Origin: an uncultured bacterium
GTDB lineage: Bacteria > Verrucomicrobiota > Verrucomicrobiia > Verrucomicrobiales > DEV007
DNA length: 30,515 nt
Direction: 5' to 3'
Assembly: GCA_963977015.1 (NCBI GenBank)
Contig: CAXBMO010000041.1
Coordinates: 1 to 30,515, forward strand
Each line of letters begins with the position of its first letter. Positions within the stretch are counted from its first letter, which is position 1. Positions 172-24,217 of the stretch are shown here, one piece after another. Position numbers and translations under genes: made by a program. Below the pieces are notes generated by a model, which ran no database searches, was not told the origin of the DNA, and saw only the letters and a list, made by a program, of their open reading frames with translations.

Positions 172-187
172 CTTTTTTGAGCCGAAC

Positions 188-418
188 AGTATATTATTTC
201 ACTTGAAGGGCTGATATCCAAATCACGCAATTGGACCCTAACTTCTTAAGAAATGTTGATTGTTTGGTTCGAGTATTCATGATTATTCTAAATGAGTATG
301 AAAATTGTCGATTCACGGGCTACTGCCCTTGGCTGCCATATGGACTATCACTACCGGCTTGGCCGGTTTTTTGCAATGCGATTTTGCCCGAAAAGGATGG
401 GGTGATAGGGAATGTGGG
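188..418 (-). repeat. Conserved non-coding repeat 'B', copy 1 (attI-like cassette head)
   Basis: Aligns by eye with 1068-1257 and 14624-14851 (shared blocks GATATCCAA, ATTCATGAT, ATGGACTA). Abuts the GTT core of the downstream cassette. Confidence 0.85.
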
Positions 419-478
419 ACCCGGAAACTGGCGCGCGGGCGATTGAGTTCAGGGAGCGTTTCTACGGGTTAACGGGCG

Positions 479-608
479 CGCAAGGATCGCCCTTCTATTG
501 AAGCCGGCGAAGCCGGAACAATGTACTAATTCAAGATTACGAAGAAAATCACTGGTAAGTGTACCAAACAGCAAAAAAACTATCGACAGACCACCTCAGA
601 TGTTCGAT
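479..608. repeat. Conserved non-coding repeat 'A', copy 1 (cassette tail)
   Basis: Aligns with 13426-13554. 35 bp are identical (577-611 = 13523-13557), and the blocks CGCAAGGATCGCCCTTCT and GAAGCCGGCG are shared. Confidence 0.9.
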
Positions 609-649
609 TATGCCCGTTTTGGCTTACCGCGTTGAATTCAGGGCGACCT

Positions 650-1054
650 TCAGAGCCGAATGACAGAATCCTCTTTGAGTTTGTTGAGAATTTCGGGCGC
701 TTGTGAAATATCGTCGTGAAATACAAGACCAGAAAATGTGCCGGTCACTTTGGCGTAGCGCTTTTCCAAGGCTTCACCGTTACGAGCAAAAATCGGACCT
801 GTTGTGTCAGCAAGCGCCTCTTCAATCAGCGCAATTGCCTCGCCATCCGTTAGGTCTTCCCAATCTTCAAGGGCGGGCATCGCGAGTTCTGCGGCAAAAT
901 CGTCCAAGGAAGTGGACCGCCAATAGTTTTCTATTTCATATTCTGTGACCGAGTGCCCTGCAATCGCTTCTATTTCATTCGCAACAGTAGTGAAGTTGAT
1001 CTCCTTCTCTTCATACCTTCGTATCAACTCGACGATCTTTGCTTTCGCTACCAT
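650..1054 (-). CDS. Cassette-borne hypothetical protein, possibly a bacteriocin/colicin-E-type immunity protein
   Basis: 134-aa acidic helical ORF whose C-terminus (SGLVFH...PEIL...IRL) resembles nuclease-colicin immunity proteins. Bounded by GTTATGCC (1067-1060) and the complementary GGCATAA (614-608). Confidence 0.7.
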   Translation of the reverse strand: MVAKAKIVELIRRYEEKEINFTTVANEIEAIAGHSVTEYEIENYWRSTSLDDFAAELAMPALEDWEDLTDGEAIALIEEALADTTGPIFARNGEALEKRYAKVTGTFSGLVFHDDISQAPEILNKLKEDSVIRL

Positions 1055-1067
1055 CTCTTGGCATAAC

Positions 1068-1257
1068 AGTATGTTATTCCACTTGAAAGACTGATATCCA
1101 ATTCATGAAATTGGACCCAACTTCTTAAGGGATGTTGATCGTTTGATTTCGGAATTCATGATTTTTCTGGAGGAGTGTGAAAATTGTCCAGTATCGAGCT
1201 GCCGCCAAGGGATTGCAGATGGACTAGCAATACGGGGTTTCGTCGTTTTCTTCAAGG
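1068..1257 (-). repeat. Repeat 'B', copy 2
   Basis: High similarity to 188-376 (AACAGTATxTTATTxCACTTGAA..CTGATATCCAA..AATTGGACCC..AACTTCTTAAG..ATGTTGAT). Confidence 0.85.
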
Positions 1258-1396
1258 AAGTTCCGACGAGGTGGGGAGTTTACTTGGAGGGGAGACTGCT
1301 GGGTGGTGACTCTTCTGATTTCGGACCCTAACAACATCGTGTCGGAAGCCACTGGGCGCTTCGTGGGAGCCCCGTCAAATCATCGCAGTTGAGGCG

Positions 1397-12819: not shown

Positions 12820-12866
12820 GCGGGTTCCAGGGCAGAAGTTTCACCGTCTGATTTCCGCAAAACGAC
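12820..12866 (+). repeat. 47-bp direct repeat, left copy
   Basis: 41/47 identical to 14899-14945, with a 20-bp exact core GAAGTTTCACCGTCTGATTT. Confidence 0.9.
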
Positions 12867-13126: not shown

Positions 13127-13136
13127 GTCCTGAACT

Positions 13137-13270
13137 GGAGGGCGATGCTCCGTCATCGCCGATTCTTGGGAATGCCTGGCGGGGGCGGAGGTAGATGGGC
13201 GGACCGCGCGCCTGTCATGCGCCCATCCGCCAAAAGCGAAGTCACGGCGACGACGGAGCGATCGCCCTCC
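13137..13270. repeat. REP/REPIN-like long inverted repeat
   Basis: GGAGGGCGATGCTCCGTCATCGCCG (13137-13161) pairs with 13245-13270 (1 mismatch, 1 indel). There is also an inner hairpin GATGGGCG...CGCCCATC. Confidence 0.75.
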
Positions 13271-13425
13271 CAAAACAATGGCAACGATTCATGTTCGCGT
13301 GTTGGCAACGCGGGGAACCGAAGACGATCTCAAATACGAAGCAAGCTTATCAAGGCGAGGCAGTCAATTCGCAGTTTCGCCGGGCCAAGAGGAATCGAAA
13401 AAGCGCTTCACGAACGAAAAATATC

Positions 13426-13554
13426 CGCAAGGATCGCCCTTCTGTCGAAGCCGGCGTAGCCTGAATATGGTATTCGATCAAGGGTAAGAAGAATTCAATG
13501 GCAACCTGTACTACAAAGCAACAAACTATCGACAGACCACCTCAGATGTTCGAT
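13426..13554. repeat. Repeat 'A', copy 2
   Basis: Aligns with 479-608; fused to the R'' remnant GAGATAA of the CbrC cassette. Confidence 0.9.
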
Positions 13555-13561
13555 TATCTCC

Positions 13562-14086
13562 TTACGTGTAGTCGGCGTAGTATAGCACCTTGGAGCATTT
13601 CCGGCATTTCCACTTGTAGATCGCAGGGTTGCCCCCGGGAGAATAGTTCTGCTTGAATTCTGTGAAGAATTCCTCTGTGAGCCGACTATCATCAAACGTC
13701 GATCGAAAGACCTCAAGGGTCATGGCCGAAACATCAGCTTTGGAGGCATCACCATGAAACTCGCAAGCATCACTACAGCATGAGAGCCAGACCTCCTGCT
13801 GCCAACTGCTGAATCCAGGAGTCCGCTTAGTGACTTCATCGATGATTTCAGGATCCAAACCGGCATCCACCAACGGATAGTCGTCGGAAAACATGCCATC
13901 AAATTTCTCCGCTGCACTGCCATCGGCGATACACCACGGGCAAACAGATTCGACCTCATCCGCGCAATAGAGGCTTGCCGTGTAAATGAATCCTCGAGCC
14001 TTCGAACAGCATTCGCACTTCGCGTCGCTCGCCTTGATGGCGCCGGTCTCAATCGGCTGAGGATGGTAGGTGAACGCTGGGAGCAT
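13562..14086 (-). CDS. CbrC/UPF0167 family protein (gene cassette)
   Basis: FTYHPQP, CECC, CPWCIADGSAAEKF, RTPGFSSWQQE.WLSCC and CRKC motifs. Confidence 0.9.
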   Translation of the reverse strand: MLPAFTYHPQPIETGAIKASDAKCECCSKARGFIYTASLYCADEVESVCPWCIADGSAAEKFDGMFSDDYPLVDAGLDPEIIDEVTKRTPGFSSWQQEVWLSCCSDACEFHGDASKADVSAMTLEVFRSTFDDSRLTEEFFTEFKQNYSPGGNPAIYKWKCRKCSKVLYYADYT

Positions 14087-14093
14087 TTTCTTG

Positions 14094-14152
14094 AGATAAC
14101 GTCGGGCATGTGCCGCGCCGATTAGGCGTCGGACACAATGCCATTGTTCGTC
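14094..14152 (-). mobile_element. Integron attC site (59-bp element)
   Basis: On the minus strand: R'' GACGAAC, arm GGCATtGTGtCCGaCGCC pairing with GGCGCGGCACATGCC (3 extrahelical bases), then R' GTTATCT. R'' AGACGAAC is complementary to this cassette's start GTTCGTCT (14623-14616). Confidence 0.88.
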
Positions 14153-14607
14153 TTCGTTTCGTCTTTTGCCTCTGCGGTCCCCTTCGACGCCATTGCCAGA
14201 TTGTAAGCTTTCATCCAGTTTTTGTTGGCCTCATCAATAGTGTATTCAAGGTATTCAGCGATCTCGTCAAATCGCTTGAATTTTGCAAATCCGACTGGGG
14301 AATAGCCCATTCGATTTTCAACCTCTTCCAACGGATACATCGAAAATGGCGACCTCGTCGGAGTCTTGGTCAGGTGTGCTTCTTCAATGTCTCGAAGCGC
14401 TTCGTCAGGAGAAAATTGGATTCCTTCATATCCCATATACTGAACGAATTGGCGTAGCTTTCGGAGGTTTCCAGATCCGATTCTCCGAAAGATTTCTTTT
14501 TCCCAATACCCCGAGTCATTCACCTCAGGTAGAAACTTGAGAGACGGAAATCGAAATACGAGGTCCTTCCGTATCCTCGAGTAGTCGTATCGAATTCGAT
14601 CAATCAT
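14122..14607 (-). CDS. Hypothetical protein (gene cassette)
   Basis: 161-aa AT-richer ORF between the GTTCGTC core and the attC; its stop lies inside the attC loop. Confidence 0.7.
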   Translation of the reverse strand: MIDRIRYDYSRIRKDLVFRFPSLKFLPEVNDSGYWEKEIFRRIGSGNLRKLRQFVQYMGYEGIQFSPDEALRDIEEAHLTKTPTRSPFSMYPLEEVENRMGYSPVGFAKFKRFDEIAEYLEYTIDEANKNWMKAYNLAMASKGTAEAKDETKTNNGIVSDA

Positions 14608-14623
14608 CTTTCTTCAGACGAAC

Positions 14624-14851
14624 AGATATTGTTCCGCTTCACGGGCGATATCCAATTCCCAAAAGTGAACCTGTTGAGGATCTTCCGTGGGGGCGAATGG
14701 GTTTGAGATTCATGATCCCTGCTTGCGTTTGTGGTATTGATTGAAATGGAGACTGCCTCCGTTGACTGCCACATGGACTATCACTACCAGTTTGCCCAAC
14801 TTGCTGCAATGGCATTTTACCCGAAAATGGAGGGGTGATGGGGAATGTGGG
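14624..14851 (-). repeat. Repeat 'B', copy 3
   Basis: Shares GATATCCAATTC, ATTCATGAT, CTGCCAxATGGACTATCACTACC, TGCAATG..ATTTT.CCCGAAAA and GGGGTGATxGGGAATGTGGG with the other copies. Confidence 0.8.
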
Positions 14852-14898
14852 CTGTCCCCACTACAAGGATCAGAATCTGTCCACGATCTCCAGAATTT

Positions 14899-14945
14899 GC
14901 GGGTTTTGGGGCGGAAGTTTCACCGTCTGATTTGCGCAAAAAGAC
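14899..14945 (+). repeat. 47-bp direct repeat, right copy
   Basis: 41/47 identical to 12820-12866. Confidence 0.9.
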
Positions 14946-22881: not shown

Positions 22882-22970
22882 GTAAAACGGGACACCGGCC
22901 CGTTCCCGCGGACGACGCGCCCGATCGACCGGCGGGAGTCTCCGGGGAACGGGCCGGTGTCCCGTTTTAC
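22882..22970. repeat. REPIN (inverted REP doublet), copy 1
   Basis: 26-bp perfect inverted repeat GTAAAACGGGACACCGGCCCGTTCCC around a 37-bp spacer. Confidence 0.9.
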
Positions 22971-24128: not shown

Positions 24129-24217
24129 GTAAAACGGGACACCGGCCCGTTCCCCGGAGACTCCCGCCGGTCGATCGGGCGCGTCGTCCGCGGGAACGGG
24201 CCGGTGTCCCGTTTTAC
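24129..24217. repeat. REPIN, copy 2 (spacer inverted relative to copy 1)
   Basis: Exact reverse complement of 22882-22970. Confidence 0.9.

Follow-up and report, generated by a model that had tools for sequence, protein, structure and literature searches.

A repeat without intron domains caps integron cassettes at the attC bond used by class C introns in an uncultured verrucomicrobial genome

Cassettes and repeats of the window

The window analysed here is a complete contig of 30,515 nt (30.5 kb; C41) from the 6.9-Mb, 51-contig genome of an uncultured member of the Verrucomicrobiota; the other contigs mentioned below (C1, C4, C6, C8, C11, C16, C17, C18, C19, C25, C28, C30, C35 and C36) belong to the same genome. 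Small minus-strand genes of integron-cassette type lie at 1-171, 650-1054, 13562-14086 and 14122-14607, and the features around them are as follows (a slash within a sequence marks a bond throughout).

185-420, plus strand: repeat B, copy 1; on the minus strand its ...ATACTG/TT connects to a further cassette with an ORF cut short by the contig edge at base 1
479-608, plus strand: repeat A, copy 1 (rightmost 130 nt of block X), ending ...CAGATGTTCGAT at 608 (found by BLAST and nhmmer)
609-1067, minus strand: cassette 1, with an ORF at 650-1054 (134 aa, no Pfam family)
1065-1300, plus strand: repeat B, copy 2, putative leader of an array of one cassette, terminated by A copy 1
13277-13554, plus strand: full block X, 278 nt, with left end AATGGCAAC... 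and right end ...CAGATGTTCGAT; its last 130 nt are A copy 2
13555-14093, minus strand: cassette 2, with an ORF at 13562-14086 (174 aa, UPF0167, E 3.4e-60)
14094-14152, minus strand: intact attC of 59 nt between the ORFs of cassettes 2 and 3, the reference site
14122-14629, minus strand: cassette 3, with an ORF at 14122-14607 (161 aa, no Pfam family) whose 3' end enters the attC
14630-14852, plus strand: repeat B, copy 3, putative leader of an array of two cassettes, terminated by X at 13554
C6:272634, C18:49716, C19:70438 (minus strand) and C36:45996: further copies of repeat B

The top (minus) strand of the intact attC reads GACGAAC AAT GGCAT ... ATGCC CGAC G/TTATCT, and its bottom (plus) strand folds into a hairpin. 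Relatives of this site lie on C6 (L007 7831-7889) and C35 (C35:30423), and sites built in the same manner are found on C6, C35, C30 and C18. The usual attC length in the genome is ~59 nt, and the real local sites reach -12 to -16 kcal/mol as DNA over 59-80 nt. Local cassettes begin, as cassettes should, with TT and 4-5 bases complementary to their own R'' core, an example being cassette 3, whose start TTCGTC is complementary to its core GACGAAC. On the minus strand, cassette 1 starts with TTATGCC (~1067) and ends in GGCATAA (615-609), where the R'' core is truncated and no attC body follows, while cassette 2 starts with TTATCTC and ends in GAGATAA, which directly abuts X 7 nt past the stop codon. 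An integron integrase is encoded on contig C1 (291 bits versus a cut-off of 265).

Repeat B is AT-rich, ~240 nt long and present in 7 copies, every one of which begins right after the RYYYAAC of a different cassette (7/7; top strand ...ATACTG/TT followed by the cassette). Judged by these joints, its behaviour is that of an attI-like array leader present in several copies; near the C1 integrase, the only integron integrase of the genome, BLAST detected nothing similar to it. Arrays with visible ends start with B and finish with A: B copy 3, two cassettes and X; B copy 2, one cassette and A copy 1; and, on C6, B, two cassettes and X.

Other repeats were observed in the window. A 135-nt hairpin with conserved 26-nt arms (GGAGGGCGATGCTCCGTCATCGCCG...) and a variable loop occurs at 13136-13271 and at C8:244585-244695 (-51 kcal/mol as DNA, flanks included); with AAC...AAC on its two sides, it is not an attC. 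A 47-nt direct repeat (87% identical; 12820-12866 and 14899-14945) lies just upstream of two divergent non-cassette genes, which flank the small array. Two 89-nt modules at 22882-22970 and 24129-24217 are mutual reverse complements and each is a near-perfect palindrome (GTAAAACGGGACACCGGCCCGTTCCC...); they are situated among duplicated gene segments (22.3-24.3 kb) and could represent an invertible or recombining segment.

Junctions between repeat A and R'' cores

Repeat A forms the fixed right (3') end of X, a discrete non-coding block of 278 nt. Whole-genome BLAST together with an nhmmer profile recovered four copies with the right end and one internal piece, of which those on other contigs are listed here.

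C6:270827-271104: full block X, 278 nt, 94% identical to 13277-13554 over 278 nt
C30:30341-30399: A copy, right 60 nt (94 nt by nhmmer), found by BLAST and nhmmer
C16:2062-2101: internal 41-nt piece of A only, without the right end, intergenic

The two full copies of X (window and C6) have unrelated flanks on both sides, and copy 1 is ~81% identical to copy 2 over 130 nt. All copies with the right end are 3'-anchored and vary in their 5' extent (278, 278, 130 and ~60-94 nt), the last 34 nt of A being identical in all four bar the final base in C6. The conservation of this tail, while the remainder of copy 1 has diverged by ~19%, suggests a recognised end, as in transposons. The 9-mer that starts X, AATGGCAAC, is also the sequence after R'' in three local attC sites, and it recurs 57 nt from the right end of X, exactly at the start of the C30 copy; the 7-mer ATGTTCG is found near both ends of X as a direct repeat.

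No relatives of X were found in 60 related genomes searched directly, and two exact X patterns gave 0 matches in a species-level genome collection; a plasmid collection likewise yielded no match to X. When the 638-nt C6 stretch that includes X was compared with 400 further genomes of the phylum, 8 matched, via an intron 5' part only (see below), and a metagenome scan returned 4 contigs with X, all of them this genome's own four loci. With four copies confined to one genome, X offers no comparative power.

Left of the 60-nt A copy on C30 lies an AcrB-family fragment (L008 5962-6349; Pfam E 2e-12, profile positions 680-809 of 1021), fused to A at a 7-nt overlap, CAATGGC; the gene appears to have been cut when the array end formed or was rearranged. 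A 29-nt stretch of the fragment resembles A at 23/29 positions, a score reached by at most 0.4% of shuffles. Derivation of A from an RND efflux gene seems less likely: three intact paralogues have no match to the tail and the C16 piece of A is intergenic, and the AcrB fragment is therefore provisionally treated as a flank at a microhomology joint. X as an inverted ORF-less cassette with its own attC was rejected, in that the R'' is only approximate (CACGAAC where CGCGAAC is needed) and no hairpin forms.

The plus-strand sequence is ...ACCTCAGATGTTCGAT/TATGCCCG at 608/609, where A is followed by TATGCC, and ...ACCTCAGATGTTCGAT/TATCTCCT at 13554/13555, where it is followed by TATCTC; the common end of A is ...CAGATGTTCGA(T). 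The earlier note had described A as fused at the same nucleotide within R'' of these two unrelated cassettes, and the description extends to the whole genome. A abuts the R'' core of a different cassette in 4/4 copies (608/609, 13554/13555, C6 and C30), the flanks after the conserved ...CAGATGTTCGA being TTATGCC, TTATCTC, ATCGCC and TTCGCC, so that the junction position is constant, C6 differing in one base. The two window cassettes are unrelated, one encoding the 134-aa ORF without a Pfam family and the other the UPF0167 ORF. Their tops start G/TTATGCC (~1067) and G/TTATCTC (~14093), and the complements of these starts, GGCATAA and GAGATAA, directly touch A; a cassette's own start is complementary to the post-junction bases in 3/4 copies (for the C30 cassette this start is TTCGCC). 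Because of this complementarity the break must lie inside R'', at or next to AA/C on the top strand, equivalent to G(T)/T on the bottom, and its position is GT/T on the attC bottom strand, antisense to the cassette genes. The T at the joint is assignable to either side, so that GT/T (intron-type) and G/TT (integrase-type) are inseparable by sequence. An intact site would run on as ATTGT before the T, as had been proposed and as is seen on the plus strand of the reference attC (...ATGCCATTGT/TCGTC), and by reading no L''/L'/R' remainder lies beyond A in copies 1, 2 and C30.

That the shared junction arose by chance, or by mis-joining at a repeat in a metagenome-assembled genome, is scarcely credible. 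The assembly has 51 contigs, repeats break contigs and the window itself starts inside a cassette, but the four junctions use the same bond in four different R'' cores, and those of C6, copy 2 and C30 (3/4) were recovered in independent read assemblies (runs X1-X4, one study), in which the C6 junction lies within a contig and those of copy 2 and C30 are seen at loose ends; this independent recovery makes an assembly artefact unlikely. The copies moreover differ by 5-19% and so are not collapsed reads of one locus. A further possibility, raised in the earlier note, is that A and distal sequence (e.g. repeat B in copy 1) together form a very long ordinary attC. In copy 1 the interval from R'' (615) to the next G/TT (183) is bounded by AAC...GTT-type boxes, but the 456-nt stretch (170-625) is not one hairpin (z -0.83, 17/100 shuffles folding at least as well), the sequences beside the two boxes are not complementary, and A and B lie apart in other copies (3 other A without B, 6 other B without A), while an ordinary local attC measures ~59 nt. 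We consider the long attC highly improbable, and both it and the artefact are close to excluded.

Class C introns at the same bond

Group IIC-attC introns insert in R'' at TTGT/T on the attC bottom strand, opposite to cassette transcription, according to PMC7923331, and most of them are located in the last cassette (PMC3001079; often, according to PMC7923331). The position and orientation of A match the homing site as described there, which upholds the earlier assignment of A to the TTGT/T bond: the 3' junction is present in 4/4 copies, and the matching 5' junction (ATTGT/GTGTG) only at C6, 638 nt upstream of A's end.

Such sites carry real class C introns and intron fragments in this genome. 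RF00029 has three matches (C17, C18 and C36), the intron maturase family GIIM (Pfam PF08388) has four, and there are many fragments besides. Across the genome and the phylum, class C introns have 5' junctions of the form ..TTGT/GTG.. and 3' ends ...CCCGAT/T. The C17 intron begins with GTGCGCC... and finishes with ...CTACCCGAT/T. On C6, a 3' fragment of C17 type has the end CCTACCCAAT/TCGCATAG, with a minus-strand ORF immediately following, and the 5' junctions on C6 and C16 are ATTGT/GTGTG and CTTGT/GTGTG. In other genomes of the phylum the exon ends in GT at 7/7 homologous 5' ends (TTGT in 5/7, TGGT in 2/7), with a hairpin discernible by eye just before the site in at least 3 of these exons, and an ORF-less relative (genome G146, locus L037) ends TTACCCGAT/T. 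A contig from run X1 reads ...CCCTACCCGAT/TATGCCCGTTGG, in which a real intron end stands on the same 10-nt core, TATGCCCGTT, that follows A at window position 609; this junction is absent from the present assembly. The 5'-varying, 3'-anchored pattern of A is also seen in real intron 3' fragments of the genome. As real introns hit the same bond in the same orientation, A occupies a bond used by bona fide introns of the community.

A 5'-truncated ORF-less derivative of ~700 nt at C4:396976-397680 (minus strand) keeps domains V and VI, and a C17-type 3' fragment (L007 5560-5815) has an insertion inside domain V. A second intron lineage (C18:44111-46831, minus strand) is in sense orientation directly before cassette starts (...CTACCTTGAT/AGCC...), with 3' fragments at C36:39666-39993, C28:63566-63884 and C11:158572-158868; the end of the C11 fragment is CCTACCTTG/TTCGGTGG, which resembles secondary-site use of the intron end by the integrase.

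The C6 locus holds, in the orientation of A and 638 nt upstream of its end, the 5'-terminal 211 nt of a class C intron. This 5' part has a GTGTG start, is 83% identical to the ORF-less C4 copy and aligns to positions 19-147 of the C17 intron, and its 5' exon is an intact attC half. When the exon halves are rejoined (...GCAACCG ATT GT/TCGCC), they form a single hairpin with paired AAC/GTT boxes, the fold having a z of only -1.26. The 5' junction is spanned by contigs in three runs and the 3' junction in one. The C6 stretch looks like a 638-nt insertion at one bond; given the 148 nt of unrelated sequence between the intron part and X, the single linking T and the z of -1.26, the locus is suggestive and no proof of a single element. 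Contigs of the 4 DNA runs contained no joints that skip the element, at a coverage too thin and fragmentary to inform either way.

By its own features A cannot be called an intron 3' end. RF00029, the domain V/VI model that recovers three real introns elsewhere in the genome, gave no match in the window at gathering score, and neither it nor models of D1-D4 gave any match around both window copies or across the C6 element at E up to 10, in line with the earlier remark that no canonical domain V was visible. Rfam as a whole gave no match to X at gathering score or at E up to 10, and X folds no better than shuffles (z -0.13 on the plus strand, +0.42 on the minus strand). In the covariation analysis 0/17 predicted pairs covaried among four copies, at very low power and with a consensus structure of -5 kcal/mol. 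X contains no ORF of a Pfam family, and no intron reverse transcriptase or maturase was found in it or beside it. Apart from the C6 5' fragment, BLAST detected no similarity to introns of this genome, and integron introns carried on plasmids likewise gave no match. The 5' GUGYG and domain I are absent from X itself, the domain-I fragment at C6 being upstream and separated by the 148 nt. ORF-less derivatives that keep domains V/VI exist (C4; genome G146, locus L037) and look different from X, and only the terminal CGAT of A matches the real introns here. The proposal that A is a derived intron-like 3' end therefore stands as to bond, orientation and CGAT, and is not supported as to domains V/VI, Rfam match, fold and covariation.

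Candidate origins of the cap and the fate of the last cassette

Among the systems closest to A are group IIC-attC introns (S.ma.I2 lineage) and their truncated relics in integron arrays and CALINs, which share the R'' TTGT/T bond and the antisense orientation. Like A they are often in the last cassette (PMC3001079 and PMC7923331), 5'-truncated copies are known (PMC7923331), and A shares CGAT followed by T with the class C introns of this genome. Unlike them, A lacks domains V/VI, domain I, a reverse-transcriptase ORF, an Rfam match and any intron similarity, forms part of a discrete 278-nt block that has a left end of its own, and is without the 5'-side attC half in 3/4 copies.

The earlier note had also suggested that A is an oppositely oriented recombination site. 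In such a case the integron integrase would have made the junction, the inverted R-box-like GTTCGA/TT of A recombining with an R'' core via the disfavoured top-strand fold or by inversion between inverted sites, with a joint at G/TT and loss of the attC body. The break can be placed at G/TT, with TTATGCC, TTATCTC and TTCGCC after ...GTTCGA in 3/4 copies, and is writable as ...A/TT plus cassette core, like integrase joints at attI or secondary sites (G/TT or G/WT). GTTCGAT fits the local R-box form GTTCGNN (R' of several cassettes), and in copy 2 CAAAAC together with the X start AATGGCAAC resembles, on the opposite strand, the RYYYAAC AAT GGCA of three local attC starts. An integrase above the family cut-off is available on C1, and repeat B, the attI-like partner in the same arrays, sets a precedent, with integrase-type G/TT joints to a conserved non-attC partner in 7/7 copies. 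The box, the attC-like start of X and the precedent of B speak for the suggestion, but X does not fold as an attC. The pre-crossover base is A rather than the canonical G, C6 has AT instead of TT, and the joint is in R'' and not in R'. Top-strand attC recombination is rare, and four independent top-strand events would be required, while the usual replicative route integrates an entire attC and has no means of removing an attC body; no integrase pathway is known to yield a product of the A type. We therefore give the integrase a low probability as the maker of the junction. X as an integrase-made inversion was rejected, since the pre-inversion site rebuilt from the flanks of copy 2 forms no attC.

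Insertion sequences offer a second attC-targeting system. A might be the non-coding right end of an extinct IS of IS1111-attC type, inserted near R'' antisense to the cassettes, from which IS-associated deletions removed the transposase and the distal DNA, the IS end being left as the array terminus. Tetu and Holmes reportedly noted in 2008 that Pseudomonas arrays often have a degenerate footprint of this kind of IS at their end. For the IS1111-attC group, PMC3001079 gives an insertion point close to the 5' end of attC sites and an orientation antisense to the array, and both the end and the orientation of these published insertions fit A, which at the R'' end of attC likewise sits at one attC end. 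Members of the group (ISPa21, ISPst6 and ISKpn4) are site-specific near the R'' end and antisense, as A is, and have a long non-coding right end to which A can be likened. The perfectly conserved 34-nt end, the ragged inner ends and the unrelated distal DNA also fit transposon ends with deletions.

An IS1111-type element resides within an attC on C18 (L009 4658-6119; C18:47657-49118), which makes a footprint of this kind a live rival that the earlier note had not considered. This resident encodes a 361-aa ORF with Transposase_20 (PF02371, 79.7 bits), followed by a 339-nt non-coding region, and has 10-nt subterminal inverted repeats (ATGAGAAGGC). It lies just after an R'' core GCAGAAC in the same direction as the cassettes, and its far flank is a truncated cassette. 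Its bond is 2-3 nt further into attC and its orientation sense, and by reading its ends have no similarity to A. In IS1111-attC elements the subterminal inverted repeats measure 11-13 bp and carry extensions of 7 bp and 3 bp (PMC11187229), but the end of A has no inverted partner anywhere in the genome, and the ATGTTCG at the ends of X is direct, not inverted; X as an IS1111 MITE was rejected for want of inverted ends. No transposase remnant lies beside the A copies, the DEDD transposase domains sought (PF01548/PF02371) being represented by PF02371 on C18 and C25 only, and two copies with the same left end of X are not expected from independent deletions. A short AACAATG match in copy 1 is uninformative for seekRNA pairing with both target strands. 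On balance we regard the IS footprint as unlikely.

The bond is the homing site of attC-targeting class C introns, and these are abundant and fragmentary in this genome; A is accordingly read as intron debris. We tentatively favour, at somewhat less than an even chance, the reading in which attC-homing intron activity left A behind as ribozyme-dead debris, which now caps arrays and locks their last cassette. X would have been joined at least four separate times to the R'' core of different cassettes, at GT/T on the attC bottom strand, with its strand antisense to the cassettes and A as its fixed right end. A would probably be a chimeric derivative without a working ribozyme that retains only the intron-type terminal ...CGAT, and it may have reached its sites through the retrohoming machinery of resident introns or by recombination among intron copies in different attC sites, the 5' side having been lost later by truncation or deletion. 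Reverse splicing is impossible for a ribozyme that lacks domain V, and four precise insertions would therefore have required trans-acting help or a different route. A discrete left end of X common to two copies with unrelated left flanks counts against intron debris, being unlike simple random 5' truncation, as do the lack of any ribozyme part in A and its sharply conserved tail, which resembles the ends of mobile elements.

A more specific variant, which we think distinctly improbable, makes X a non-autonomous retroelement with no ribozyme, hitch-hiking in SINE-like fashion on attC-homing class C introns; its 34-nt CGAT tail would be used by an intron reverse transcriptase or RNP to copy X into the homing bond.

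For the arrays, the consequence would be the same as the earlier note envisaged, namely removal of the attC hairpin and locking of the cassette, which is a reasonable expectation with no attC remainder in copies 1, 2 and C30. The cassette beside A keeps only RYYYAA of its attC and would, having no L''-L'-R' half, form no recombinogenic hairpin and undergo no excision. The integrase recombines the folded attC bottom strand (PMC7923331), and since it needs this fold we infer that a capped cassette should not be excisable. A may thus mark a frozen array end.

Integron arrays are thought to be fluid, every cassette having a foldable attC, and introns and intron relics in attC sites are already known. 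The array ends seen here, with attC cut at one precise bond and capped by one repeat, give a picture of array fixation and of the influence of attC-homing elements on array ends in a lineage that has received little study. If A is a relic only, this is one more intron-ridden, decaying array; what is unusual is a multi-copy cap without any intron parts at the intron's bond. If the cap moved without a ribozyme of its own, it would represent a new way for intron machinery, or for another attC-targeting system, to move foreign sequence, and if the hitch-hiker account were true, group II introns of bacteria would be capable of carrying unrelated RNAs to integron sites, freezing arrays as a result.
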